A stretch of DNA of 36,601 nucleotides from a virus: the IMG/VR virus record IMGVR_UViG_3300025669_000013; one strand, written 5' to 3'. The position numbers and the translations under genes were made by a program. Within the stretch, counting starts at the first letter, position 1. Each line of letters opens with the position of its first letter. A model generated the notes under the pieces. That model made no database searches, was not told the DNA's origin, and was given only the letters and a program-made list of their open reading frames with translations. Positions 2,036 through 26,502 of this stretch are shown here, in pieces.

Positions 2036-2428
2036 TCACCATTTAAAAGTTCCAATTTTAAAAATAAATTCATCCAGATTATCAATAAGCCAGTATTGCC
2101 CGCCTGCCTCGATTACTTCTTGTTCACGGTCTTTTTGGTCCTGACTTTGTTTACCGCCCGGCTTTTTGAATTCCACTTCAATATAAAATCCATGAAAGCA
2201 GAGTACAGTGTCAGCTTTGCCCTTTCTTTCACTTACTTTCGCCTTTATCCACGTTTTACCTTTCTTTCTGCCGGTCGTGCTGGTTTTTGTGATCAGGCAA
2301 CTAGGGACGTTTTCAGCGTATTCAATGCAGTCCTTTTCTATGTCATTTTCTGTCGGCTCTTCAACATAGCAGAGTTTACAGATTTGATTCGGCCCGCAGC
2401 TGCATGTTGTTTTTATGTGATTTTTCAT
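2036..2428 (-). CDS. VRR-NUC / PD-(D/E)xK family nuclease.
   Basis: [45 protein letters not shown] fits the VRR-NUC core D...E-x-K...G-x-x-S-x-x-Q...G. The N-terminal region is Cys-rich. Confidence 0.6.
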
Positions 2429-3039
2429 TTTAATGATCTTGAATTAGTCAAATGCTTAGAAATTGAAATAATAATATTCTTTTCACGTTTCCAAAATTCC
2501 AGCGATCTGTAATCGTCCATTCCAAATATCCTATCGTTATCAAAAGATTCCCATTCTTTGCAATAATGGGCTTCACATCCTATTTTTATAATTGAGCCAA
2601 AAAATAAACAGTAATAATCTGAGCCTTGATAATATGAGAACTTTTTTGATTTTATTTTTAATCCTTCTTTCAAATCAGCTCCGTACAAATCAGCTCCGTA
2701 CAAATTAGCTCCGTACAAATCAGCTCCGCTCAAATTAGCTCCGCACAAATTAGCTCCGCTCAAATTAGCTCCGCACAAATTAGCTCCGCACAAATTAGCT
2801 CCGCTCAAATCAGCTCTGTACAAATTAGCTCCGCTCAAATTAGCTCTGTACAAATCAGCTCCGCACAAATTAGCTCTGTACAAATCAGCTCCGCTCAAAT
2901 TAGCTCTGCTCAAATTAGCTCTGTACAAATTAGCTCCGTACAAATTAGCTCTGCTCAAATCAGCTCTGTAACCTCGCTCTTTTCCTAAAACCCACATTTT
3001 ATGGAGTTTTAAAATTTCTTTTAATTTATCTTTATCCAT
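2425..3039 (-). CDS. Pentapeptide-repeat protein: 20 consecutive [YSC][GR]A[ND]L repeats plus an unrelated C-terminal domain of about 80 aa.
   Basis: The translation reads [15 protein letters not shown] ... YGADL, the canonical A(D/N)LXX pentapeptide-repeat pattern. Confidence 0.9.
2671..2970. repeat. Tandem array of 20 x 15 nt (caaatYagctcYg + ta/ct/ca), the coding repeat of the pentapeptide protein.
   Basis: Counted unit by unit. All 20 units are in phase and 11 of the 15 positions are invariant. Confidence 0.95.
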
Positions 3040-3043
3040 TTTT

Positions 3044-3112
3044 CATAATCTCCTTCCAATTTTATCCCACGGCCCCCGATTTACAGAGGACCGTGTGGAG
3101 AATTTTGGTTAA
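3044..3112 (-). promoter_or_regulatory. Copy A of a 69-nt intergenic direct repeat containing a GC-rich hairpin and the SD AAGGAGATT.
   Basis: 62 of 69 positions are identical to 3955-4023, with no indels. It spans from the stop of the upstream gene to the SD of the downstream gene. Confidence 0.8.
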
Positions 3113-3957
3113 AATCCGCAAAAACCTGAATTACATGGAAGTGTTTCTCCCCCAGCCCATAATTCAAGTTGTAGATTATCCCTGTTTTCTTTTGCTTCTT
3201 TAATTTTCCTCATTGCTTCAGGCAATTTGTACTTCCCCTTATCAGCCAGTCCCCATTTGACAACCTCTTCTATCCCTATTGCTCCCATGTGGCGGTATGG
3301 TCTAAACATTACTCTCGGTTTATTGTTTCTTGTAAATCCCATTGATTTCTCAATCTCTGAAATATATTTGATTCTTTCCGGATATTCAGCCAGGCGAATA
3401 AAATCAGACCGGTTAGAACATACACAAGGGAAACATTCCATTGAGCTGTGTGGTAATATTTCCAATTCTGTTTGATTTATTAGCTCGTTCCTTTGTTCAG
3501 CAGTATAATCAACCAAAGGACAGTACAGATCCCTTCCCCCATGCCTTTCAGACTGCTCAATAAATGCAGGAGCATGTTTCCGGTTTTGACTCTCTTCCCT
3601 TCTTATTCCAGTATAGCAGTCCGCTTCTAATTCCGGATCTATTTCCAACATAAATTCTCTTGCTGGTCTGACTTTCAGCTCTTCAGTGCAAAATTGCATT
3701 TTACTTGCTGGCATTGGCCACCCTTTTTTTCTTCTTACGAGATTTTCCATGCCTTCAGAATCAATTATGCGGAATTCAAGTCCTTTTACTTGTGCATAAA
3801 TCTTAACAAGATTCACTCTTTTATGCCAATCAGGATGGCTCCATCCCGTATTTGAATATAGTATAATATTTTTATCGGCAGGTTTATTGTTAATAACCCA
3901 TTGCATAAGTGCCACTGAATCATTGCCACAACTTGAAAAAATAATATTCGTGTTCAT
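3109..3957 (-). CDS. PAPS reductase / DndC-like PP-loop ATP-pyrophosphatase family protein.
   Basis: The N-terminal FSSCGNDSVAL is a variant of the SGGxDS PP-loop. GIRREESQNR and the Cys-containing MECFPCVC segment are typical of the PAPS-reductase family. The C-terminus is CNSGFCGF. Confidence 0.8.
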   Translation of the reverse strand: MNTNIIFSSCGNDSVALMQWVINNKPADKNIILYSNTGWSHPDWHKRVNLVKIYAQVKGLEFRIIDSEGMENLVRRKKGWPMPASKMQFCTEELKVRPAREFMLEIDPELEADCYTGIRREESQNRKHAPAFIEQSERHGGRDLYCPLVDYTAEQRNELINQTELEILPHSSMECFPCVCSNRSDFIRLAEYPERIKYISEIEKSMGFTRNNKPRVMFRPYRHMGAIGIEEVVKWGLADKGKYKLPEAMRKIKEAKENRDNLQLELWAGGETLPCNSGFCGF

Positions 3958-4023
3958 AATCTCCTTTCAACTTTATCCCACGGCCCCCGATTTATAGAGG
4001 ACCGCAGGGAGAATTTCGGTTAA
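3955..4023 (-). promoter_or_regulatory. Copy B of the 69-nt intergenic direct repeat.
   Basis: See copy A. It occupies the whole gap between the Rha-like gene stop (4020) and the PAPS-reductase start (3957). Confidence 0.8.
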
Positions 4024-4730
4024 TTCAATTTTTTGATCAAGACTGATTCAGCATATTTCAAGACGGCTTGTTTTGCCAGAATGAAAATTTCTTTATAGTG
4101 CAGTTTATCTTCCATGCCTTGTTTTATGGTCTCATTCGCTACGTGCTCAGCCATTATCAGCATAAAAAGTTCCATTCTATCCAGTGTGTCCCTGAAGTCT
4201 GAGGGTACTTTTTCCTTATACTCGATCATCTTTAGCGCTGCATATTCCATTTTTGTGAGATTCCCATAATACCGGAATGAAGACTTTGAACCTTGATCCT
4301 CAGCATATTTGACAAATTCAGAAACGCACCCTGTAAATTCAAGTCTTGCAATTTTTCCATCTTTCCTAACTTGTTTCCAGTCTGAATCTAGGCTATTTAA
4401 TAGCGTGGCTTCCATACTATTAAAAGCCTTGATGAAATCCATTTTCCATTGTAGCGCTTTTTTACCAGTAAAACCCATTGCGAGAATAGAAAATGAATTT
4501 CTGTTCATTTCATAACTTCTAAATTCCCTACCTCTGACTTTTCTTTTTGTTTCCCTGAAGATATAAACATCATTTTTCACTCCTACATTTTCACGAGTGA
4601 GATTGCCTATTTCTTCTTTCAATTTGTCGATTGATCTCAAAACTCTGTCATGAGGTTTTTTAAACTTACCAGCAATCAAAAAGCTATCTGTCAAAACATC
4701 GCCTTTTTTAATTTTAACTAAATCCAACAT
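4020..4730 (-). CDS. Rha-family phage regulatory protein / antirepressor.
   Basis: TDSFLIAGKFKKPHDRVLRSIDKL and MGFTGKKALQWKMDFIKAFNSME match the conserved Rha domain pattern (T-D-S...F-x-K-x-H-x-x-VLR-x-I; GFTG-x-x-A...F-I-x-x-FN). Confidence 0.8.
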   Translation of the reverse strand: MLDLVKIKKGDVLTDSFLIAGKFKKPHDRVLRSIDKLKEEIGNLTRENVGVKNDVYIFRETKRKVRGREFRSYEMNRNSFSILAMGFTGKKALQWKMDFIKAFNSMEATLLNSLDSDWKQVRKDGKIARLEFTGCVSEFVKYAEDQGSKSSFRYYGNLTKMEYAALKMIEYKEKVPSDFRDTLDRMELFMLIMAEHVANETIKQGMEDKLHYKEIFILAKQAVLKYAESVLIKKLN

Positions 4731-5509: not shown

Positions 5510-6208
5510 CTAATAATAAGGATTATTAATTCCACGAATGTCAATCCCGAACTGGATCAACATGTGTTTACTTAAACTTCTATAGTAAATATCGTCAGCC
5601 ATTCCCTTGATGAAATATACTTGTTTTAGCGAACACATAACCCCGTCTCCAGTGTTCATTATCCAATTTTCAAACTCCCTTTCATAATCTTCACTCCCTC
5701 TGCATATTCCATCTTCTGATAATTCACAAGGCAGTTTATATTTTTTGTAAAATTCACTTCCTTTTATCCTGTATACTTTCCACCCTTCTGAATTTAGTTT
5801 CTCGTCCCTTTTTCTATCTTTTTCCTCATCATGCCAGTCTTTCCCGTCGCACTCTACCGCAATTTTTAGGTGTGGATTTGCAAAATCAAGAATAAAACCC
5901 ATTGTCGGAAATTGTGGCAAAAGATTAACACCGTAGTATCTTATCAAATTCCAGCAACCGCCCTCGATTGGAGTAAACAACCTAGGCCAGTCCACAAAAT
6001 ATGGATCATACCCACAACCGGACGAATAAGCCTCAATTATATCTGGAAGATGCAAATCGTATATTTTTCTCAATTTTGTATAAATTCCCTTACCTGGCTC
6101 TAAAACATGAAAGTCCATCTTTCCGGATTTCATGTATTCAACCACTCCTTTAACACCGCCCATTTCCTCTATTATTTCACCTATATTTTTTGCTGTCATT
6201 TTAATCAT
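5510..6208 (-). CDS. DUF559 / Vsr-like PD-(D/E)xK endonuclease-domain protein (start at 6208 or 6199).
   Basis: ILDFANPHLKIAVECDGKDWHDEEKDRKRDEKLNSEGWKVYRI fits the DUF559 core D-F...[IV]-E-x-D-G-x-x-H...D-x-x-R-D-x-x-L-x-x-x-G-W-x-V-x-R. Confidence 0.65.
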   Translation of the reverse strand: MIKMTAKNIGEIIEEMGGVKGVVEYMKSGKMDFHVLEPGKGIYTKLRKIYDLHLPDIIEAYSSGCGYDPYFVDWPRLFTPIEGGCWNLIRYYGVNLLPQFPTMGFILDFANPHLKIAVECDGKDWHDEEKDRKRDEKLNSEGWKVYRIKGSEFYKKYKLPCELSEDGICRGSEDYEREFENWIMNTGDGVMCSLKQVYFIKGMADDIYYRSLSKHMLIQFGIDIRGINNPYY

Positions 6209-7586
6209 TCCAATGAGGTTTACTGTTTGCGTTGATCGGAAGCGGTATGTCATGTTGACTCAGATTACTGAATTTTGTGTACATACCCTCGAATTTTAAC
6301 TTGACCATTCCCGTCGGGCCGTTCCTGTGTTTTTTGATTAGTACCTCCGCAATCCCTCTATCAACCGTCTTTTTATTATATATTTCGTCACGGTAAATAA
6401 ACATAATAATATCAGCGTCCTGCTCAATACTCCCGGACTCTCTGAGGTCAGACAACATCGGTCTTTTATCTGATCGTTCCTCACATTTTCGGCTTAACTG
6501 AGATAGCGCTATTACTGGAACATTCAAACTTTTAGCGAGTCTTTTCGTTCGCCTACTCATATCTGCAACTTCCTGCTCCCTTTGTTTTGTGCTCTTACCT
6601 TGAACCAATTGAAGGTAGTCAATAACAATAAGCCCCAATCCTTTTTCATGCCTTCTATTCAACGCTCTTGATTCGTGTTCTATCTGGTCCATTGTACTTG
6701 ATTTTTCATCAAAATACACTGGTTTTTCTGATAGTTCTCCAGTTGACATTGCCAGTCTGTCGAAATCTTCCTGGTTGAGATTTCTGCCAGTTCTTATTTT
6801 TGTATTATCGACTTTTGAAGATGAGCTTAAAATTCTATCTCCATTCTGGTCGTTTGACATTTCCTGGGAGAATATTATTGTCGCTTTGTCTGTTTTATTT
6901 TTCTTATAGACGTTTTCAACGATATTCAAAGCTAACGCGCTTTTCCCCATCGAAGGCCTGGCAGCTATGAAAATTAGATCAGGTGCTATCAACCCGTTTA
7001 TCAACTTGTCAATGTCTGCGAATCCTGTCGGTATCCCTGTTATTTGTTCCTTGCTGTTATATCTATCCTCTATATTATTTACGCACCTTGTAAGAACTTC
7101 CTTGATATGAACAGCGTTCTCTGTGATCTTTGACTCAGATATTTTAAGAATCTTTTCCTGTGCTATTGAAAGCACTTCGTTAACGTCTTGTCCTGGATCT
7201 CTGGCAAGTCTCGTAATTTGGCTGGACTCACTGATCAATTCTCTCATAAGAGCGTGGTCTATTATTAATTTTGCATAGTAGACAATATTACCCTCAATCG
7301 GTGCGTTTGCCTCAATCTCTGCTATGTATCCTATCCCGCCGGCCTCTTCAATTTTGCTATGTGATCTCAAATTATCAGTTACCGTCATTACATCTATGGG
7401 ATAATCTTTTGAAAATAATTCACTGATTGACCTGTAAATACATTGGTGAGGTTCGCTGAAGAATGTCGATGTATCAACAATATTTATTATCTTTTCAATC
7501 TGAGAATTGTCTGAAATCATATAGCCTAGAATCGTTTGCTCCATGTCTGTATCTTGTGGAATTGATAACTCTTGATCGATTTGCAT
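6201..7586 (-). CDS. dnaB: Replicative DNA helicase, DnaB family.
   Basis: Walker A ARPSMGKSALALN, Walker B LIVIDYLQL, the ALSQLSR motif and an N-terminal DnaB-like domain are all present. Length is 461 aa. Confidence 0.92.
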   Translation of the reverse strand: MQIDQELSIPQDTDMEQTILGYMISDNSQIEKIINIVDTSTFFSEPHQCIYRSISELFSKDYPIDVMTVTDNLRSHSKIEEAGGIGYIAEIEANAPIEGNIVYYAKLIIDHALMRELISESSQITRLARDPGQDVNEVLSIAQEKILKISESKITENAVHIKEVLTRCVNNIEDRYNSKEQITGIPTGFADIDKLINGLIAPDLIFIAARPSMGKSALALNIVENVYKKNKTDKATIIFSQEMSNDQNGDRILSSSSKVDNTKIRTGRNLNQEDFDRLAMSTGELSEKPVYFDEKSSTMDQIEHESRALNRRHEKGLGLIVIDYLQLVQGKSTKQREQEVADMSRRTKRLAKSLNVPVIALSQLSRKCEERSDKRPMLSDLRESGSIEQDADIIMFIYRDEIYNKKTVDRGIAEVLIKKHRNGPTGMVKLKFEGMYTKFSNLSQHDIPLPINANSKPHWND

Positions 7587-17274: not shown

Positions 17275-18933
17275 TTATACTATTTCAGTTGCTTTTACGT
17301 TTATTCCAATAATACCTGTGGCCGCCCCGTCAGCAGTACCGGAATGGTGCGGCCTGATTATATCACCAGTGTCTATTTTCCCACTCCACGTTACGGAATT
17401 AATCACATTTGCCCCACCTGTGGCCGCCCCGCTTAATTGGTCCGCAGATGTTATTCCAGTTATACCCGTCGATAACTGAGTTGAATTTTTGCTGAATCCC
17501 CCTATGCTTGCAGCACTATAGTTAAAAGTGTATGTTATTGTTACAACACAATTCATGTTTGCCGTTATACTGAAACCGTCATCAGCCGATGGCCCGGCAA
17601 GATTCTTTACTGTTACAACTACATCATCAGAAGCCTCAACCTCAGTTGTGAATTTTTGTATGTTTGTATTAGTTGCACCAACACCATTTTGCGTCCTGAA
17701 AAACGCAGATGTGACCCTAGCTCTACCATGTTTTTCAACTTTATCTAAATGACTGCCAGCACTATTATAAGCTTTCCCAACATTAGCTTTACTAACACCT
17801 AATCCAGTTGGTGATAGCATATGAATTTTGTAAGTCTCGTCACCATCTGGGAACAAATCAAGATCAGCACCAGCAGCGTCTTTGCACGTTAAAACAGTTT
17901 CAGAAATTACAGCTTTGACATATCCTTCTGTGCCGTCTGTTGTTTGATATATTTTATCTCCAACTTGAACGAGATCGGCTTCAAAAGTTGCATCATCATC
18001 ATCCAAAGAGTTTGCGGTATCGTTATCTGCTGTTCCGGTTAAATCAGGAACCATCATTCTGACACCAGCCGAGTCGTACCAAAGTTGATACCATGTTGAC
18101 GCTTTCTCAGACGTTGTTGCCATTAAATCGGTAGTGATATTGTAGGTTTCATCAATATCAGAAACAACTGTTCCCAAAAATGCGGCGGTCAACGTCAACA
18201 GGGAGTCCGCGTTCATATCAACTGTATCCGCTGTAATTAAGTCTAAAATCAAATTATTAGAATCAATATTTACCTTACTTACTTTTGGGGAGACATAAGC
18301 TTTTACAGCGTCCTGGGATGGTGCTATCACAGCCGAGCTTGCAGAATCCAAATCAGCATCAGAAATTTTAGCCTCAACAAAGGCTTTTACTGATTGCTGA
18401 GATGGCGGCAGAACTGCGCTATCGCTCGCCATGTCATCTTCGTCTAATATCTGACCTTTTATGATATCCCAATCTGCGTCGATCCCGGTTGCACCCGCTT
18501 TATTGCATACGATGAAATTTCCAACTATCAGAACATGATCACCCGAATCTGAATTCAAAGTGAAGGCTTCAGAAACTTTATAAAAATCACCCTGAGATCC
18601 ACTTGCTGGATAATCACCTGCATTCGTTGTGCTGTCGAAATCACCCTGGTATATTAAATCACCATCACGGCCTTGAAGATTGTCGAAAGTTTGAGAATCA
18701 GCCCCGTTTTTGTCTGTGATAATTATTTTATAGAGTCCTGATATATAAATTACAGGAAAACGCCCACTATCATCGGCCACAACCGGCCAATCATTAGCGG
18801 TTGTTTCTGCCGATGTTGTGTAGGTTGCTTTTGGGGTTGTGGTTCCGGCTTCGTAGAAATACAGCAAAGCGCCATCGGAGGGCTTTATGTTCAGCCCGTA
18901 TGCTGACACTATCGGAAAATTGAATATTGACAT
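17275..18933 (-). CDS. Tail fibre / receptor-binding protein (552 aa).
   Basis: It is the last large gene of the structural module. The N-terminal LLYFYEAGTTTPKATYT...DDSGRFPVIYISGLYKIIITDKNG is typical of podovirus fibre/spike attachment domains. The body is rich in D/T/G/A. Confidence 0.65.
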   Translation of the reverse strand: MSIFNFPIVSAYGLNIKPSDGALLYFYEAGTTTPKATYTTSAETTANDWPVVADDSGRFPVIYISGLYKIIITDKNGADSQTFDNLQGRDGDLIYQGDFDSTTNAGDYPASGSQGDFYKVSEAFTLNSDSGDHVLIVGNFIVCNKAGATGIDADWDIIKGQILDEDDMASDSAVLPPSQQSVKAFVEAKISDADLDSASSAVIAPSQDAVKAYVSPKVSKVNIDSNNLILDLITADTVDMNADSLLTLTAAFLGTVVSDIDETYNITTDLMATTSEKASTWYQLWYDSAGVRMMVPDLTGTADNDTANSLDDDDATFEADLVQVGDKIYQTTDGTEGYVKAVISETVLTCKDAAGADLDLFPDGDETYKIHMLSPTGLGVSKANVGKAYNSAGSHLDKVEKHGRARVTSAFFRTQNGVGATNTNIQKFTTEVEASDDVVVTVKNLAGPSADDGFSITANMNCVVTITYTFNYSAASIGGFSKNSTQLSTGITGITSADQLSGAATGGANVINSVTWSGKIDTGDIIRPHHSGTADGAATGIIGINVKATEIV

Positions 18934-21900
18934 TATGTTTTCCTGTTAATGAGCTCAAGTGCTTTCCGTTTATCGGCTGCTGAGTCCTTGCGCTGTAATT
19001 GGTGTTTTGTTCTGAGAACATTCACAAGCTGACTGATGTATTTTTGCTCGTTTCCTTTTCCTTTTGCGATTTTAATCAATAAATTCCTGACCGCTTTTGA
19101 TTCATAAGCCCTGGCCGCTGCGCCTATTGTCAGAGCAGGGACTACAAATTTAGCGCCACCTGCCACGGCTCCCCCGCCAAGCCCTAACGCTGCTATATTC
19201 TGGTAATTCTGCATTCCGGTTGGAGGCGATACACTCGCTATTTCAGCCCTTCTAGTTGATTTCAGTGCTTTTACAAGACCATCCAACACTTTTTTATCTT
19301 CACCTTTGAAAAATACACCTGTTGATTTTTCCATATTTTTCAAAGCTGTCTGGAATTTTGCGGTTGATAACTCATCAATTCCGCCCGCTTTTGCCATTGC
19401 TTCCTGCCACATCGCAACCCTCGCCCTTGCTTTACCTTGTGGGCTTAGCGACTTGTAGAGCCTGTTTATATCGCTTGGCCTACGGCTGAATAATAATTTT
19501 CTGACTTCTTCTGGGCTTGATTTTCCGTTTTTTATCGAAGCTTTCAAGGCAGATATATCAAGTTCTCTGATATTCTTTGATAATCTCTGATTTGCTGTTT
19601 TCCATTTATCGTAGTCCCTGCGTTTTCCGTTGGTTTTGATAAACTCGCCCATGTCCTCATTGACCGCTTTGTATATCTTTTTGTTTACTTTATCGGCCTG
19701 ACTTTTCATGGCAGCAAAATTTTCACTTCCAAGTTTTTCACCGAATACTTTCCGATTATCTTCAACCTGTGCCAGTGTTTTTTCAGTGAATGAAGTTCTG
19801 GAATTCTCCAGGGCATCGATCAAAGGTTCAACATCTTTGTTATCCAGGGCTGTTAATCTTGTGATCTCTTTGTCTATTGCTGCTGTGGTTTTGTTTATTG
19901 GTACTGTGTTTCTTATTGGAGTAGTTGAGATTTGGTCTGTATTTCTTACAAGAACTTCCTTACCCCTTTTTACGGTATCATATCCCATGTCCCACGCTGC
20001 ATCTGGGTCTAATGTTTCAGCTATAAAAGATAGGTCTTTATCCGATGCTTTCGACAAGTCATCAACCCCCCATGCTATCACAAAATTTCCATTTTCATCA
20101 GCGTCAACTTTTGCCTTGGCCCTGTCATGCCTTAAACCTTTTGTTTCTTCTTTTTTCTTATTGAAGAATTTTAAAGCTTCGTCTTTTTCAGACTGTTTAA
20201 ATGTTTTAGATTGACTAGCAAATCCAGGTCTGTCTGTGTCCGGTATTGTTTTATTAAACCTCTCAACAATCTTTTTTCTGTCTGCTTTAGTTAAATTATC
20301 CCAATCTAAAACATTTCCCTCGTCTAAATATGCTTCTTTTATCTTATCACCGTAAACTTTTGCCTTCCCTTTTGTTTTTCCAAAGTATGTTCCTGTCCCT
20401 AATTTACCCGGAAGCATTTCTTTTGATTCAAACACATTAAAATCTTTAGACGTACCATGAAATACTTTTTCAGAATCCTCAGAAAGTCTCTCAATAACAT
20501 CAACTTTCTGTTTATTGTATTTCTGAATATCAGCACCACGTTTTTTCAGCAGGTCTTTCATGACATCATCTGAAGCCTGAGCTGTTTCAGTTGCTCCGTA
20601 TTCTCTTAAAACTCCCCTGATTGCTTCGACTCTTGCCTCTTGCTGTTCAACTCTCTTGCCACCGGTTCCGATTATCGGCATTCTCTCTGTCCCGATTTGT
20701 ACGGCCTTTTGAGTCGGTGTTTTTGGTGGAAATACATCTGAAGTCAAAGGTTCAATATCAAATCTTTTCGCAGTTTCAACAGTTTTTTCAAGTTCTGTTT
20801 TGATCGGTGTAGTTTTGATTATTGGTACTGTGTTAGCTTTTGCGCCCCCCGCTACCTGGAATTTATCAGGTAGAACTTTCCACTCTCTCGTCACCCTGTC
20901 AACTGCTTCTTTATAGGTACTAAATTGACTATCACCAGAGGGGATGCCGTCTTCACCTATTATACTTAACTGCCACCGCCCCGGCTCTTTTGCTGATTTG
21001 TGTACAAATAGTTCTATTCCGCTATTTGTTTTTGCTTTAAAAGGTGCATCTGGGTTGCCCTTGATAAATTTATCTGTTATACCCCTTCTTGTTTTTACAT
21101 TTTTTAATGATGCGTCAACAAAATCCTTGCCGGACAATTTTTCTAAATCTATCAATTGTTCTGTTTTGATTGGGACTGGACCCCTTGTTTTTATCCCTGC
21201 TTTGGCCAGTGCTCTCCTGATTGGTTCCGGTGCTGATTTTCCTTTAAAAAATCCTCTCAATGCTGCAATTCCCTTTCCTGCTGCTACTCCGCCGCCCTCG
21301 AATGTCATTGCTAAGGGTATTTCCATTGCATCAAACTTACCGCCGGCCATTTCTTGGGTTGCTTCTATCCCAAATTGCGTTGCACCCGCTCCGCCGACTC
21401 TTTGTAGACCGGTTCCTCTTGCCCCTGCCGCAAAAAGGAGCATTGTAGTTGCTGATCTCAGTAAATCTTCCTCTGTCCTAAATCCTGGCTTGATTGCGTA
21501 TTGGTTACCGTCCATTCCGGATGTAAAAACGTAATTTCCTTTTGAATCTTTGGCGATGTCTACATCTGGATTTTGCTTTTTGATTACCTGGGAGATTTCA
21601 TCTGGACCTGCAGCCATAGTTCCAACCAGGCTTTTAGCACCTCTCAAACTCAAATTATTCATTTCAGGCATTCTGACCCATGAAGGAAGTGCTTCCGTTT
21701 CTGGTACCCTTCTGCCTGCGCCTGTGATACCTTCTTTGACCCCTTCGAAGAAAGAAACATCTTCTGATTCAGCGGTGATAACAGACCCGGATCTTAAATC
21801 AGCAATTAAGTTTTTCATGCCTTCATCTGACATTTGACCATCCCAGAATCGTTTCATAACTACGTCAGGAACTTCGGCCGGCTTTGTTTCTTCCATATGT

Positions 21901-22109
21901 GCAGGGAATACGCCTTCGATAGGAATCGGAGCTTGTGGTTGCGCTGGTTGCTGTAATACATCTGAACCGGCGTCCGCAATCATTTTCTGTGATCCCAAAG
22001 GTGCCTGGATAACTCCCGCTATCAAATCGGCTTCGTAATTTGACCGGCCTTGTTCTGACATTTTGCCGGATATGTAATTTTTATAAATATCGTCTTGCCA
22101 ATTAGCCAT
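18933..22109 (-). CDS. Large internal virion / ejection-type protein (1058 aa) with an embedded ART-like segment.
   Basis: Its position corresponds to the P22 gp16/gp20 slot, just before the fibre. Residues around 548-600 read VFHGTSKDFNVFESKEMLPGKLGTGTYFGKTKGKAKVYG. Confidence 0.55.
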   Translation of the reverse strand: MANWQDDIYKNYISGKMSEQGRSNYEADLIAGVIQAPLGSQKMIADAGSDVLQQPAQPQAPIPIEGVFPAHMEETKPAEVPDVVMKRFWDGQMSDEGMKNLIADLRSGSVITAESEDVSFFEGVKEGITGAGRRVPETEALPSWVRMPEMNNLSLRGAKSLVGTMAAGPDEISQVIKKQNPDVDIAKDSKGNYVFTSGMDGNQYAIKPGFRTEEDLLRSATTMLLFAAGARGTGLQRVGGAGATQFGIEATQEMAGGKFDAMEIPLAMTFEGGGVAAGKGIAALRGFFKGKSAPEPIRRALAKAGIKTRGPVPIKTEQLIDLEKLSGKDFVDASLKNVKTRRGITDKFIKGNPDAPFKAKTNSGIELFVHKSAKEPGRWQLSIIGEDGIPSGDSQFSTYKEAVDRVTREWKVLPDKFQVAGGAKANTVPIIKTTPIKTELEKTVETAKRFDIEPLTSDVFPPKTPTQKAVQIGTERMPIIGTGGKRVEQQEARVEAIRGVLREYGATETAQASDDVMKDLLKKRGADIQKYNKQKVDVIERLSEDSEKVFHGTSKDFNVFESKEMLPGKLGTGTYFGKTKGKAKVYGDKIKEAYLDEGNVLDWDNLTKADRKKIVERFNKTIPDTDRPGFASQSKTFKQSEKDEALKFFNKKKEETKGLRHDRAKAKVDADENGNFVIAWGVDDLSKASDKDLSFIAETLDPDAAWDMGYDTVKRGKEVLVRNTDQISTTPIRNTVPINKTTAAIDKEITRLTALDNKDVEPLIDALENSRTSFTEKTLAQVEDNRKVFGEKLGSENFAAMKSQADKVNKKIYKAVNEDMGEFIKTNGKRRDYDKWKTANQRLSKNIRELDISALKASIKNGKSSPEEVRKLLFSRRPSDINRLYKSLSPQGKARARVAMWQEAMAKAGGIDELSTAKFQTALKNMEKSTGVFFKGEDKKVLDGLVKALKSTRRAEIASVSPPTGMQNYQNIAALGLGGGAVAGGAKFVVPALTIGAAARAYESKAVRNLLIKIAKGKGNEQKYISQLVNVLRTKHQLQRKDSAADKRKALELINRKT

Positions 22110-23311
22110 TATCTGTATCTCTCTAATTGTTCCGGGGTTGCCTCTTGAGTTGGTGTTTGTATTTGCGGTTTAGATATTGACACGCCACCGAAACCGAATT
22201 CTTCAGCATTTGGATAGGCAGTTGCTTTTTCAATGATGCTATCATAAATTTGTTCCAGTCTGTCTAGGTTCCTTGTCAACTGCTCTGGACTTTGATCCAA
22301 TTCTATCGAACCCATGACGGCCTCAAGTTGTTTCATTTCACGTTCTGAGATTGCACCCAATGCGCCACCGGTCTTTGATGCTTCTCGCATTGCTTGCAGT
22401 CTATCAAATCCGACATTTGCTCCGATTGTATTCTTTAACGCTTCAGCGTCTTTTCTTGCCGATCCCGGAACTTCTGATGCAATGCCACCAGTTGGACCGG
22501 TTACGGGATTGTAAAACGCTTGATCTGAGATGATCGACCTTAGTCTTCCAATATCTTCTTTGACTATATTAGCAGTCCTGGCAGTTGTCTGCCTCTGTGA
22601 TTCCGTTTTTTTCCCAGTCTCTATTGTTTTTTTAGCGGGTGGGCCTCCTTTAATCTCGTACATCTCGTATCCTTCAGCCGTTTTTCTTGCTGCATATCCG
22701 GGAGGAATTTTCCCTAATCTATCCCCGGATGGGCCGGTATTGACATTGATCGTTTGACCTTTCCCACCAAGTCTCACAAATTGACCTTTTGGCGAAATTT
22801 GATATGGTGAAGTGTCTGTTATTCCTGCAGCCAGTTTTTCTGGATCGGTTGCGATTCTATAACCGGTTTTTTCGGCTTTCGGTGCGGGCGGTCTTTTCAA
22901 TACATTTGTTTGATACCCTAATTCAACACGTTGTTTTATCGCTTCCTGTGCGCTTTTCTTCGCATTAGGGTCACCGCTCTGCATATTCCGCAAAAGCCTT
23001 TTAGTGGTGTCTGAATTGATTCCTCTGCTATCTAAACCTGCAATCCTCTCTTGTGTTCTAGCGATCTGCTCAGATTCAGGAAGTCCGGAAATTTCAGCGG
23101 CGAATATTATCGTTTCTTTTTTAAATCTTTCCATGTCTTCAATTTCTGCTTTCTTTTGACCTGCCGCGATTGCCCTTTTTTCACCTAAGACGCCCCTTTC
23201 TTCTTTGGCCTGGGCTGTTTGGATACCTTTTACTTGCCCGTATGCCCCGAGCCCTTGTAATATTAATTGGCCGTAGTCCGGTCCGTACTCTGGTTGTATT
23301 GTTCTCGCCAT
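22109..23311 (-). CDS. Putative internal virion / ejection protein (400 aa).
   Basis: The call rests on position in the module. The gene is TAATG-coupled to the 1058-aa gene and has no recognisable catalytic motif. Confidence 0.4.
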   Translation of the reverse strand: MARTIQPEYGPDYGQLILQGLGAYGQVKGIQTAQAKEERGVLGEKRAIAAGQKKAEIEDMERFKKETIIFAAEISGLPESEQIARTQERIAGLDSRGINSDTTKRLLRNMQSGDPNAKKSAQEAIKQRVELGYQTNVLKRPPAPKAEKTGYRIATDPEKLAAGITDTSPYQISPKGQFVRLGGKGQTINVNTGPSGDRLGKIPPGYAARKTAEGYEMYEIKGGPPAKKTIETGKKTESQRQTTARTANIVKEDIGRLRSIISDQAFYNPVTGPTGGIASEVPGSARKDAEALKNTIGANVGFDRLQAMREASKTGGALGAISEREMKQLEAVMGSIELDQSPEQLTRNLDRLEQIYDSIIEKATAYPNAEEFGFGGVSISKPQIQTPTQEATPEQLERYR

Positions 23312-23321
23312 TTGTCACCCC

Positions 23322-24116
23322 TTAGAAATTTATGTCTATTCCGCTGCCGCTGAAGTCCATCATACCATCCATCATGCCGCCGCCACTCATGTTATAATTT
23401 CCAGCGCTAACATTTCCGCCGATATTTTGCCCGTATTGATTTGAGTTGTAATTCGGAGCTATGCCACCCGCAAAAACTGGTTTGACTGCTGCCGCTTTGG
23501 CCGCTGCGATTTTAGCCGCTTGATTTGTTGAATTAAGACCTAATGCCGTTTTGCTAACTCCTAAATCAGCGCCTGTCATTGTTTGACCTGCAACCATTCC
23601 TCTATTTGCGAGCGTTCCGAGTCTGTTGAATTGGTTATCATAATCCTGTTGCGCAAATCCGACTCCCTGCTCAACTAATGCCGACCTCACATTACCGCCA
23701 CCTAGCCCGCCCAATTTTGCGGCGTTTCTGACTAATGCTTTTTCAGAACGTTCCCGCATGAATTTTTGACCAGGGGATTCGTTGAATCTTCCCATTGCGG
23801 CTGATTGCTCTTCTGGTGTCCCAAGTCCTAATAATGCGGCCTGCTCTCCTGATGCTTGCTGTCCTGTCTGTGAATACGGGTTTAGTAAACCGCTTGAATA
23901 GTCACGTTTTGACTGTGCCCTCTCTGCGCCGAATGTAGCAGATTGACCAAATTGCTCTTTTCTCTGCGCCAATTCTTCTGCTGACAACGCCCTATCTGCT
24001 GCGTTCTGTGCTGCGTTCGCTGAATTAGCGTCAGACATTGCTGCCCTGTTCTGGTTTGCTCCATAAACCCCTGCTATCACCGTTCCCGCTCCTACTGCTA
24101 CTGCAACCCAGCTCAT
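23322..24116 (-). CDS. Putative internal virion / ejection protein with an N-terminal TM helix; rich in G/A/Q/N (264 aa).
   Basis: MSWVAVAVGAGTVIAGVYGA is a hydrophobic N-terminus and the body is low-complexity. The call also rests on position in the module. Confidence 0.4.
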   Translation of the reverse strand: MSWVAVAVGAGTVIAGVYGANQNRAAMSDANSANAAQNAADRALSAEELAQRKEQFGQSATFGAERAQSKRDYSSGLLNPYSQTGQQASGEQAALLGLGTPEEQSAAMGRFNESPGQKFMRERSEKALVRNAAKLGGLGGGNVRSALVEQGVGFAQQDYDNQFNRLGTLANRGMVAGQTMTGADLGVSKTALGLNSTNQAAKIAAAKAAAVKPVFAGGIAPNYNSNQYGQNIGGNVSAGNYNMSGGGMMDGMMDFSGSGIDINF

Positions 24117-24637
24117 AAAACCTCCAATTTTAAATCACTTACCTGTGATTCTAGTTCCTTAATATCATCCTGCATTAATAAAACTTCCTCTTCGTCCGTG
24201 TAAACAGTATCTTTTTCAATTTCGGAAATATCCGTTTTTTCCGTGGCGTGGATAGTTGTGAATTTCATATCTTCAAAAGCGTAAAATACTTTTTTTGTTC
24301 CTGGTTCTGATTTGAAGAATTCACCACCACACACAAGTTTTCCTTGCCCTTCAATTAACACATTTGCTTTGCCGGTATGAACAATATTGAAGTGCTCAGT
24401 TTTGTGAGTCTTACCGATTAAAACTGTCCCAGCCGGAATAAAAATGGTTCTGGCATAAACACCCGGGGAAAAACTGTCTTTTGTTTCCAACTCTACCTGC
24501 GGTAGTTTCTTTAAATCTTCCTGAAAGTCAAACAACCATTTCAGATAATAAAGCAGTTCATTCAACCCAGTCAGGTTTTTGTTTGAGTTCGATTCCATTT
24601 CCTTTAAACACATAAGCGTCCGTTGTTTCGCTGGCAT
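24113..24637 (-). CDS. Cupin-like beta-barrel protein with a C-terminal coiled coil; start uncertain (24637, 24613 or 24598).
   Basis: PGVYARTIFIPAGTVLIGKTHKTEHFNIVHTGKANVLIEG resembles a cupin strand pattern. The gene overlaps the upstream ORF by 41-80 nt. Confidence 0.35.
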   Translation of the reverse strand: MPAKQRTLMCLKEMESNSNKNLTGLNELLYYLKWLFDFQEDLKKLPQVELETKDSFSPGVYARTIFIPAGTVLIGKTHKTEHFNIVHTGKANVLIEGQGKLVCGGEFFKSEPGTKKVFYAFEDMKFTTIHATEKTDISEIEKDTVYTDEEEVLLMQDDIKELESQVSDLKLEVL

Positions 24638-25058
24638 GTAATAAAACTATATCGCTATCATTTGGAAGACACACACAAGATGCAGCGCCTGGATCCGTTG
24701 TCTTTTGTTGTCCGATACACGGTTGAAAATATGCTGCGTCAGCATTTGAAAAAACTAATGGTAAAGTTAAATCGACTCTTGTTCGTAATGCGCTGGCCAC
24801 TGTGTAGACAAAACAAAAATCAACGTTCCAAATTCTGTCGTCTGTTAAATATGGGATCGCCCACCCTCTTTTCAATGATACGATTGCTGGATCTGAAGAG
24901 ATGGTAAAATCTCCTGATCCATCAGTGTCTGCAATATATCTTTTTTTCCAAGATCCAGCCGAGAGCTCACCCAAAAATCTGAAAAACCTGTTTAATTGAA
25001 ACCCTTTTTCGTCTATGATCAGTTCAGCTTTTTGTGGAACTCTGAATCTAGGCTGCAT
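24558..25058 (-). CDS. Hypothetical virion-module protein (166 aa).
   Basis: The ORF lies between the gp10-like gene and the ejection-protein genes. There are no recognisable motifs. Confidence 0.45.
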   Translation of the reverse strand: MQPRFRVPQKAELIIDEKGFQLNRFFRFLGELSAGSWKKRYIADTDGSGDFTISSDPAIVSLKRGWAIPYLTDDRIWNVDFCFVYTVASALRTRVDLTLPLVFSNADAAYFQPCIGQQKTTDPGAASCVCLPNDSDIVLLHASETTDAYVFKGNGIELKQKPDWVE

Positions 25059-26502
25059 TAGTCATCTCCACATCAAGTTTGATGAATGTTCTCTTGATTG
25101 GATCGGTGATTCTGAATCTGAATATCCGGCTCTGTTCTGAAATTCCCAGTCTTCTCCATTCTGCTCTTCTGAAATATTCGCCAATTCCTCCCAGGTCAGT
25201 CCATAATTCATATGACCAATTCCGGCCACCATCATCTGAAAAATCCATCATTACCTGGGGATCACTTCCTTGCCCTGTGATTAATCCCTGGCCTGCGTCA
25301 ATGATCAATTCGACTTCATGAAAAATCGTTGCCATATTTTTCACAAATATCGGAGGTGTCACTTTTTCCGATAGTAATACCGCTGTATATTCCTTGTAAA
25401 CATCCTCGTCTAGATACCCGATTCTGCCATCAATCGCGTCTGAAACGACTAATTTATTATAAACATAATCGACACTTGCTATTCGCCAGGCGTTGTCAGC
25501 TACACCTGTTTGTTGTTCAAACCATACTTTTCTTTCGGATAGTCTGGTTGCAGTGACATTAAAAACAAAAGTTCTGGAACTGACAACCACTGACCTGAAA
25601 GTAAACCCTACAAAAGCATGACCGTTTATTCCGTATGTGAATGAATAAGCTTCTGATATTTCATCGACTGTGAATTTTTGAATCTCTGTGTCAATTGCAT
25701 CAGAACTGATTTTTTCGGGTTCTCCTGATGATCCAGCCCTGTATATTGACGTTCTTTCATTCTTGCCACCGCCGACGAAGTATAGTGCACCTTCCCATTG
25801 AATGGGCGTGTATTTAGCATGACAGCCTTTTTCATAGCTTGCCCCCTCGATTCTTTGATAAGGGAAACCGGCTCCGCCGATATTTTGAAATAACTCTGTT
25901 GTATATTCTCCCAAAATATAAACATAATCATAGTTTGCAAATCCAGCAACAATCAAATCAGGGCTTAATTCTGCTGTTCCAAAATCCAAAGCGTCTATTG
26001 TCCCGGGCGTGTTCAAATTAGACGTAAACCATTTTTTACCGTCTGATTGCGTGTAGATAAAATACCCGTCTGAAAAAGAAACCGTGTCAGAAGTTACATA
26101 ACTAACATCTGTAATTGTGGCCAGCGTGGTTGTGGCTGCTGTGTATGTGTAAGCAAGCCCGCCGGGAACAACAATCGCCATTACCAGGCCATTATGAGCA
26201 ATTGAAACACGTTTTGTTCCTGCTATGGTTCCAAGTGCTGTTTTTGTTCCTGAGCTGTCGAAACTGTTCAAAGCGGTTCCGTTGATCACATAAAGAACGC
26301 CACCCATTACAACGGCTCCCCGGCTCTTATTGCTTCCCAATGCCCCGCCGGTTCCCAGTTGAACAATTCCAGGTGTGCCGAATAAAACAGCCTCGCTCCA
26401 TGCCTGATCTTGTGCTATTGCTGCGTACATATTTACGCATCTCTGAGCTGAGAAAGGCATTGAACCTGATTCGTAAGCGCCTAAGCCGAGTGGTATTTTC
26501 AT
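25048..26502 (-). CDS. P22 gp10-like tail hub / packaged-DNA stabilisation protein.
   Basis: At 484 aa it is close to the 472 aa I recall for P22 gp10, and it follows the gp4-like gene. The N-terminus (VNMYA...GTPG...RG...G.LY.V.G..L) and the C-terminus (WRRLGI...FRFRIT) parallel my recollection of gp10. Confidence 0.6.
   Translation of the reverse strand: MKIPLGLGAYESGSMPFSAQRCVNMYAAIAQDQAWSEAVLFGTPGIVQLGTGGALGSNKSRGAVVMGGVLYVINGTALNSFDSSGTKTALGTIAGTKRVSIAHNGLVMAIVVPGGLAYTYTAATTTLATITDVSYVTSDTVSFSDGYFIYTQSDGKKWFTSNLNTPGTIDALDFGTAELSPDLIVAGFANYDYVYILGEYTTELFQNIGGAGFPYQRIEGASYEKGCHAKYTPIQWEGALYFVGGGKNERTSIYRAGSSGEPEKISSDAIDTEIQKFTVDEISEAYSFTYGINGHAFVGFTFRSVVVSSRTFVFNVTATRLSERKVWFEQQTGVADNAWRIASVDYVYNKLVVSDAIDGRIGYLDEDVYKEYTAVLLSEKVTPPIFVKNMATIFHEVELIIDAGQGLITGQGSDPQVMMDFSDDGGRNWSYELWTDLGGIGEYFRRAEWRRLGISEQSRIFRFRITDPIKRTFIKLDVEMTNAA

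Follow-up and report, generated by a model that had tools for sequence, protein, structure and literature searches.

An ADP-ribosyltransferase motif within a P22 gp16-type ejection protein

The window analyzed in this study is a complete stretch of 36,601 nucleotides (nt) of viral DNA (IMG/VR record IMGVR_UViG_3300025669_000013), and its subject is an ADP-ribosyltransferase (ART)-like block inside a protein of 1058 amino acids (aa) encoded on the minus strand. Coordinates of all features are collected in Table 1. Sequence comparison identifies the protein as a homologue of P22 gp16. Two collinear blocks align in BLASTP, residues 725–1024 with gp16 292–587 (E 1e-20) and residues 436–545 with gp16 193–291 (E 2e-8), while the C-terminal third matches phrog_770, ‘DNA transfer protein’ (E 3.4e-57), and the Pfam family PF26808 (Phage_P22_gp16) is found in nine of the ten closest relatives (P0002–P0011, all but P0005). 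The gene belongs to a minus-strand P22-like module that also includes the large terminase, portal, major head protein, gp10-like head closure, gp7-like and gp20-slot genes; downstream of it lies a 552-aa open reading frame (ORF) of unassigned function, where relatives encode proteins of ~475 aa. Relatives in the same synteny carry P22_portal, P22_CoatProtein and Phage_stabilise, and the order of the gp7-like and gp20-slot genes is identical in the loci L001 and L002. The 400-aa protein is labeled gp20-slot because of its PHROG matches and synteny; its pairwise BLASTP comparison with P22 gp20 was not significant. These results agree with a first-pass annotation, made by a model from the letters alone, which had assigned the gene to the slot of the ejection proteins.

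P22 virions contain ~12 copies of gp16 each, and its release on infection is quantitative (PMC8402733); gp16-type proteins are thought to enter the inner membrane and project into the cytoplasm (PMC8954989). By homology to P22 gp16, the 1058-aa protein would be packaged and ejected as well. Its Gly/Ala-rich segment at residues 970–1002 aligns with the equivalent segment of P22 gp16 and is a putative inner-membrane insertion element. The reading frame is tightly packed between its neighbors: its ATG and the last base of the upstream gene’s stop codon share base 22109, and base 18933 is both the last base of its own stop codon and the first base of the next gene’s start codon. An identical 1058-aa protein is encoded by nine contigs, drawn from four samples or more, which excludes an assembly chimera or artefact. 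Two other Pfam matches in the protein were set aside. The YoeB_toxin match at residues 831–884 (19458-19619, minus strand; E 0.001, 19.5 bits versus 27) lies inside the conserved gp16 core and was judged spurious, and the LdpA_C match falls below the cut-off.

The first-pass annotation had reported an H-G-T ... G-x-Y-F block in this product, and the peptide is indeed present at residues 549–595. The interval given for it, 20290-20470, does hold the block, yet it is out of frame and needs to be read on the minus strand; an in-register reading gives nonsense both ways. The histidine, previously numbered H550, is H551 by codon (20457-20459, minus strand), and Y575 (20385-20387) stands as numbered; Y586 and E718, discussed below, are encoded at 20352-20354 and 19956-19958. 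The block comprises a first strand with H551-G-T, a second strand with G571-x-G573-x-Y575-F, and a helix with A583 and Y586. The pattern [FYW]HG[ST]-x(10-30)-G-x-G-x-Y-[FL] was matched a single time when all six frames of the window (73,198 codons) were scanned, and never in 20,000 residue shuffles of the 1058-aa protein. The ART motif at this position is real, and the earlier reading of the block as an ART-like effector domain in an ejection protein is supported.

ART-PolyVal identity and predicted catalytic residues

Residues ~547–729 are an ART-PolyVal (PF18760) domain, of which the reported block forms the N-terminal half. Searched with the whole protein, PF18760 matches residues 548–647 (E 2.8e-7) at 31.8 bits against a gathering cut-off of 31.2, and the excised domain reaches 33.0 bits. 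Among the 23 aligned subfamily members, 21 match PF18760, with a best E of 2.3e-22. With residues 540–740 as query, phmmer run exhaustively over 1.84 billion representatives returned 89 relatives, 41 of them at E<=1e-10 and most aligned across residues 549–729. They are either solo proteins of ~200 aa or domains, often in several copies, of giant proteins of 1,500–4,400 aa. A word-indexed homologue search gave no match with the ART domain alone and six proteins only with the subfamily profile; an IMG/VR scan with the ART domain found no relatives, and megablast of the 1058-aa gene found no match.

In an alignment of 58 ART relatives, H551, G571 and Y575 are invariant (58/58), G709 (57/58) and Y586 (55/58) are nearly so, and position 718 is E in 51, Q in six and H in one; counted across all domain copies, fragments included, this column holds 61 E, 6 Q, 1 D and 1 H. 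The window copy retains every strongly conserved family position except the consensus G at 564. The proposed likeness of the block to the first two catalytic positions of H-Y-E type ARTs holds for H551 and Y575, which are fully conserved within a PF18760 domain. The third, acidic residue, which the first-pass annotation could not place, is assigned here to E718, in GKEVLVRNTDQI; it was missed by eye because a conserved subdomain of ~100 residues (~605–707) parts the two halves of the ART core. A second tyrosine beyond the residues listed earlier, Y586, forms a Y-X10-Y pair with Y575. Judged by conservation and by analogy, the resulting signature, H551 ... Y575-X10-Y586 ... E718, is that of the diphtheria-toxin/PARP type, H-Y-Y-E.

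The two tyrosines lie 11 residues apart in diphtheria toxin (Y54/Y65) and in PARP1 (Y896/Y907), a spacing identical to that of Y575 and Y586, and the PARP1 glutamate strand ‘NEYIVYDIAQV’ resembles the E718 strand ‘KEVLVRNTDQI’ of the window domain. A profile search of the PDB aligned the H-G-T and G-x-G-x-Y-F motifs to the same motifs in PARP15, PARP12, PARP10 and tankyrases (E 0.01-1). In hhalign, E718 falls on the E of a ‘DE’ pair in an AcrIF11-type domain of a relative, P0004 (see below), and this pair in turn aligns with the catalytic D115/E116 of the AcrIF11 structure 6KYF (PMC12421852). Membership of the Alt/ModA/ModB (R-S-E) group was rejected: the motif is H-G-T/Y/E and not R...S-T-S...E-x-E, and no Alt/VIP2 match was found in Pfam or PHROG.

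The subdomain within the ART core is itself conserved, most clearly at T656 (53/58) and D662 (48/58). Other ART-PolyVal copies keep the N-terminal half (hidden Markov model (HMM) positions 8–66) and the C-terminal half (HMM 164–195), and differ in their middles. Because the variable helical region of AcrIF11 offers an analogy for a specificity element (PMC12421852), residues 605–707 are most likely a target-recognition module, a candidate role that we draw from this comparison. An H-D-R-A-K-A motif at residues 661–666 (20112-20129, minus strand) is conserved within the subdomain and may take part in substrate binding or in the active site.

Predicted fold of the domain

An AlphaFold2 model of the ART domain, built on the 23-sequence alignment, reached a predicted local distance difference test (pLDDT) score of 91.7 and a predicted template modeling (pTM) score of 0.82. 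Strands are predicted at residues 547–553, 571–577, 589–595, 600–602, 712–715 and 718–721, with H551 in the first and Y575 in the second. The best Foldseek match in the PDB was 9k3a_B, a chain of the cyanophage A4 pre-ejectosome (E 5.5e-6), followed by AcrIF11 (6KYF; E 8e-4, probability 1.0) and then by PARP2 and PARP1 (probability 0.63-0.69) and many tankyrase catalytic domains (<=0.99). In BFVD, 27 matches at E<=1e-3 were obtained, mostly annotated as PolyVal ADP-ribosyltransferase or ART-PolyVal-like; the probability reached 1.0 for PolyVal ARTs. TM-scores were low (0.35–0.45) because of the inserted subdomain. A single-sequence PDB search with the full 1058-aa protein returned noise only. 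None of the outcomes that the first-pass annotation had named as refuting its idea was seen: ART-fold matches were obtained in both databases, and the region was modelled with confidence as a globular domain of the alpha+beta type instead of a linker or coiled coil. The predicted structure assigns the domain to the ART fold.

A variable slot in gp16-type proteins

Comparison with L007, the closest relative at 82–89% nucleotide identity, delimits the ART cassette: homology ends at residue ~541–545 and resumes at 734, and L007 has an unrelated 393 nt between these breakpoints, which are shared by L008. The GC content of the cassette is 35.6% (26% at third codon positions), versus 41–46% in its flanks. 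Because both gp16 blocks are contiguous in P22, the ART domain sits at the equivalent of gp16 ~291–298. When the ten closest relatives (34–75% identity) were aligned, this slot was empty in seven, between ‘...DVIExLS’ and ‘VPxxKT...’, and filled otherwise in the remainder, with an AcrIF11-family ART in one and other cargo in two. ART-PolyVal occurs in the window protein only, among 25 retrieved family members. The comparison suggests that gp16 tolerates foreign domains of ~130–190 aa at this slot.

The AcrIF11-family ART occupies residues 432–574 of P0004 (L001:10001-12724), a syntenic gp16 homologue from a P22-like metagenomic phage. It matches NF052490 over its full length (61 bits versus a cut-off of 50) as well as PF26151, with the catalytic ‘DE’ pair intact, and by these profile matches P0004 is a candidate for a virion-delivered anti-CRISPR enzyme. 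The cargo of P0005 (L007:20-1789, residues ~136–260) matches phrog_10691, a giant-protein profile (E 7e-25); a weak Pfam likeness to GNAT (E 0.03) is a lead. For the cargo of P0003 (L008:4721-7366, residues ~420–555), no Pfam, NCBIfam or PHROG match was found. The P0003 and P0004 cargos are not assigned to ART-PolyVal, as their probabilities in hhalign comparisons with its profile stayed below 4%; the P0004 assignment comes from the AcrIF11 models. Those proteins that are nearest to the window’s ART domain occur in unrelated phages, within other virion-module or polyvalent proteins: P0026 combines LPD23 and ART in one protein after the adaptor gene of a SU10-like podovirus, P0030 (1514 aa) follows an SLT protein and a 1065-aa protein, and P0032 (1100 aa) adjoins an ATLF protease and a 2H ligase.

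The window protein contains a second insertion, insert 1 (~116 aa), which no aligned relative, L007 included, has. Direct repeats of 16 nt on either side of it (20792-20807 and 21158-21173) encode a duplicated PIKTE. Its single-sequence AlphaFold2 model has a pLDDT of 54.6, with a predicted four-strand-plus-helix core at ~70–76. Insert 1 has no Pfam, PHROG or IMG/VR relatives, its Foldseek search gave nothing better than E 0.036, and a by-eye impression of YegP likeness was unsupported. It may be a second cargo domain. Of the two or more effector domains that define a polyvalent protein, one was identified, the ART, and insert 1 could be assigned to neither a fold nor a family. The final 27 nt of insert 1 (20808-20834, NTVPIIKTT) are a second copy, identical at 25 of 27 positions, of the repeat that directly follows the ART cassette; two matches were observed where none was expected (100 shuffles), and a further in-register match of 16 nt (DVEPL/DIEPL) lies 48 nt downstream. 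The repeat may be a recombination junction or a linker common to cargo modules.

Table 1. Features of the ejection-protein locus in the 36,601-nt window
Feature	Position	Strand	Basis
gp16-type ejection (DNA transfer) protein gene	18933..22109	minus	1058-aa ORF, phrog_770, P22 gp16 BLASTP
Reported block, residues 549–595, peptide VFHGTSKDFNVFESKEMLPGKLGTGTYFGKTKGKAKVYGDKIKEAYL	20325..20465	minus	codons checked
ART cassette, ~residues 542–733, 576 nt	19912..20487	minus	homology breakpoints, protein alignment, GC
Subdomain of ~100 residues (~605–707) within ART core	19989..20297	minus	model secondary structure, conservation
C-terminal core strands, residues 709–728 (GYDTVKRGKEVLVRNTDQIS), predicted catalytic E718	19926..19985	minus	conservation and model
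27-nt repeat encoding NTVPINKTT, directly 3' of ART cassette	19884..19910	minus	repeat search
Insert 1, ~residues 319–434, ~116 aa	20808..21157	minus	absent from L007 and all aligned relatives
Gly/Ala-rich hydrophobic segment, residues 970–1002, C-terminal to ART	19104..19202	minus	Kyte-Doolittle peak 1.59, 19-residue window
gp20-slot protein, 400 aa	22109..23311	minus	phrog_2534 ‘released from the phage upon host infection’, E 4.5e-6
gp7-like protein, 264 aa	23322..24116	minus	phrog_598 ‘DNA ejection’, E 9e-13

Proposed mode of action and alternative explanations

We consider it probable, taking the parts jointly, that the ART domain is a horizontally acquired cassette at a variable slot of gp16, that it is a catalytically competent ADP-ribosyltransferase, as its predicted signature suggests, and that it acts on the host at entry. 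The 1058-aa protein would be made late and packaged in the capsid; as infection begins, it would leave unfolded through the tail, along with the gp7-like and gp20-slot proteins. After refolding, it would insert into the inner membrane by its C-terminal hydrophobic segment, and its scaffold would help to build a trans-envelope conduit. The ART domain, tethered at the cytoplasmic face, could then ADP-ribosylate a host macromolecule with host nicotinamide adenine dinucleotide (NAD+) before phage gene expression, for host takeover or the neutralization of defence, with the 605–707 subdomain selecting the target. In diphtheria toxin and PARP, the histidine and the tyrosines bind NAD+ and the glutamate catalyses the transfer; by analogy, NAD+ would be bound here by H551, Y575 and Y586, with E718 as the catalyst. 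The analysis itself establishes the identity and fold of the domain, the conservation of its signature, the identity of the carrier and the cassette boundaries; packaging and ejection (from homology to P22 gp16), cytoplasmic exposure, enzymatic activity, the nature of the target and action on a host molecule after injection are steps that we infer. A more speculative extension, which we hold to be possible and rather doubtful, is that the slot at gp16 ~291–298 serves as a hot-swappable bay for pre-packaged anti-defence enzymes that inactivate a host immune complex before phage transcription.

Several points weigh against the main reading. The whole-protein PF18760 score barely passes its cut-off and would be marginal alone. 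The triad of ART-PolyVal has been described as H-Y-D, with the aspartate in strand 5 (PMC5512222), whereas the conserved acid here is a glutamate (E/Q), and its assignment rests on alignments and motif analogy. Aspartate candidates are D711 of GYD (30/58) and D602 (49/58); either the strands are counted differently or H-Y-E is the triad of this subfamily. No match to the ART domain was obtained by tblastn in 50,697 phage records, so that there is no cultured-phage relative and no experimental handle, and in our literature search biochemical data were not found for any ART-PolyVal member. After ejection, the middle of P22-type gp16 may stay periplasmic, where there is no NAD+, and the ART would then be idle. 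The domain must also survive unfolding and refolding during ejection, and there is neither a protease nor an evident cleavage site that could free it.

DarT, Tpt1/KptA and some PARPs modify nucleic acid, and an active enzyme might likewise act on host or phage DNA or on RNA ends, or might be mainly an NAD+ glycohydrolase; we regard such a non-protein substrate as unlikely. The H-Y-E clade includes DNA- and RNA-modifying enzymes (substrate range in PMC5512222), and gp16-type proteins bind DNA and are located at its point of entry (PMC8954989). However, Iyer et al. place ART-PolyVal with protein-modifying PARPs, Gig2 and the cholix and diphtheria toxins (PMC5512222), AcrIF11, the nearest characterized structural neighbor, modifies protein (PMC12421852), and a dozen or so molecules per virion would be a small number for depleting NAD+ in bulk. 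We think it less probable still that the enzyme acts late in the producer cell, on virion proteins, itself or host factors, its ejection being incidental or leaving it periplasmic and idle afterwards. Encoded in a late structural operon with its frame touching both neighbors at 22109 and 18933, the protein should be abundant in an NAD+-containing cytoplasm before packaging, and after ejection the slot may face the periplasm. Fusion to an ejected scaffold is, however, unnecessary for a late cytoplasmic role; moreover, the same slot of a relative carries an AcrIF11-family anti-CRISPR ART, useful only at entry, and the ART subfamily recurs in virion-internal or polyvalent proteins.

Very little weight falls on a retained but catalytically dead ART fold whose role in the pre-ejectosome or conduit is one of structure or binding. 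Pseudo-ARTs exist, our literature search found no activity data for the family, and the ART-like block of cyanophage A4 gp27 has T aligned to E718, with a D one residue earlier. Yet the window copy keeps H551, G571, G573, Y575, Y586, G709 and E718, and the slot is empty in most scaffold relatives, so the module is not structurally required. That a lysine-rich linker resembles the motif by chance is close to inconceivable. The marginal single-sequence Pfam score would fit it, but the shuffled sequences, the 41 relatives at E<=1e-10 over ~180 residues and the confident ART-fold model speak against it, and the relatives, their PF18760 matches, the model and the fold matches in PDB and BFVD together refute it.

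Other genes in the window and significance

Other genes of the window may bear on host defence or DNA modification. A minus-strand gene at 2425-3039 encodes a pentapeptide-repeat protein of 204 aa (Pfam E 1.4e-36); pentapeptide-repeat proteins can mimic DNA, and an anti-restriction or anti-defence role is possible. A PAPS-reductase-domain protein (3109-3957, minus strand; E 1.2e-9), which may function in DNA or nucleotide modification, and a MTES_1575/DUF559-type endonuclease-fold protein (5510-6253, minus strand; E 7.5e-12) are encoded by genes that adjoin those of a DnaB helicase (6201-7586) and a Rha regulator (4020-4730).

The locus is a compact, testable case: a genome of ~36.6 kb from a short-tailed, P22-like phage with a known type of carrier, a clean cassette and defined predicted catalytic residues. 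Its relatives with an empty slot, an AcrIF11-type ART or other cargo form a natural comparative series on ejection-protein cargo, and the tolerance of the gp16 slot bears on the engineering of phages as vehicles that carry enzymes into bacteria. If the slot is indeed a swappable bay, it would represent a strategy of injected catalytic anti-defence or anti-CRISPR action, with about a dozen enzyme molecules delivered together with the DNA, and would avoid the lag that makes phages with expressed anti-CRISPRs cooperate.

Comparison with known systems

The kind of arrangement seen here has already been described. Iyer et al. (2017) reported ART domains in polyvalent proteins of phages and conjugative elements that are predicted to be injected, with the virion RNA polymerase of Roseovarius Plymouth podovirus 1 (CBX87992.1) as the ART-PolyVal prototype (PMC5512222). 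The window domain belongs to the same sequence family and fold, has H in strand 1 and Y in strand 2, and likewise forms part of a large virion-associated protein for which entry into the host alongside the DNA is predicted. It differs in its acid, E718 (E/Q) where D was stated, and in the conserved inserted subdomain of ~100 residues. Its carrier is of the P22 gp16 type, and it sits internally, as a cassette at a slot in which most relatives have nothing. Neither P22 nor gp16 occurs in the text of Iyer et al. (PMC5512222), and our literature search found no description of a P22 gp16-type ART carrier, an alternately empty and filled internal slot, or an AcrIF11-type domain in an ejection protein. 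P22 gp16 itself (609 aa) shares with the window protein the two homologous collinear blocks, a hydrophobic segment towards the C-terminus and a gene position following gp7 and gp20; unlike the window protein, it is empty at the slot (~residues 291–298). The window protein owes its additional 449 aa to the ART cassette, insert 1 and an extended N-terminus.

The best fold match in the PDB, chain B of the cyanophage A4 pre-ejectosome (PDB 9K3A, 1071 residues listed; PMC12002296), points to a further ejection protein with an ART-like module. In Anabaena phage A-4L (L013, KF356198), gp27 (20116-25269, minus strand) contains at residues ~1420–1610 an ART-like SLYHGT...GSGTYFS ... VGVDALTDGDTTLVINPD block; its YHGT...GSGTYFS ... 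GVDALTDGDTTLVINPD arrangement has the same layout as the window domain. This block is probably the region behind the 9k3a_B match. An attribution of the match to A4 gp28, which has an unassigned alpha+beta domain, was dropped, the H-G-T/G-x-G-x-Y-F block having been found in gp27 instead. If 9k3a_B is gp27, as we infer, the virion physically contains an ART-like module as part of an ejection protein. The A-4L gp27 block has no Pfam sequence match, ADP-ribosylation is unmentioned in the structure paper, and the domain is unannotated by its authors (PMC12002296). The A4 system differs from the window in being T7-like rather than P22-like and in having T at the E718 equivalent, with D one residue earlier.

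AcrIF11 is a small phage ART that specifically disables a defence complex (PDB 6KYF, 8DWQ; PMC12421852). It is a fold match of the window domain and has a variable helical region thought to set target specificity, but its key residues are H-F-H-D with a DE pair, versus H-Y-Y-E here. The window protein matched neither AcrIF11 model (NF052490/PF26151) and had no NCBIfam match at E<=0.1, so that the similarity is one of fold alone. The AcrIF11 proteins studied are <=200 aa, the survey having excluded longer homologues (>200 aa), and their packaging is not stated (PMC12421852). T4 Alt is the experimental model of a packaged and injected ART (PMC5512222, PMC9503650). The concept is shared, in that Alt is carried in the capsid, delivered with the DNA and modifies host proteins at time zero. 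In contrast to the window domain, it belongs to the R-S-E (Alt/VIP2) clade and is a stand-alone myovirus head protein, not a module of a conduit-forming ejection protein. The T4 internal proteins Ip1–Ip3 are injected, hypervariable and anti-restriction (PMC12373910). They resemble the proposed cargo in being pre-packaged, injected, highly variable among related phages and aimed at host defences, whereas they are small stoichiometric inhibitors with an N-terminal capsid signal and the window domain is an enzymatic cassette, by prediction, set within a structural ejection protein.

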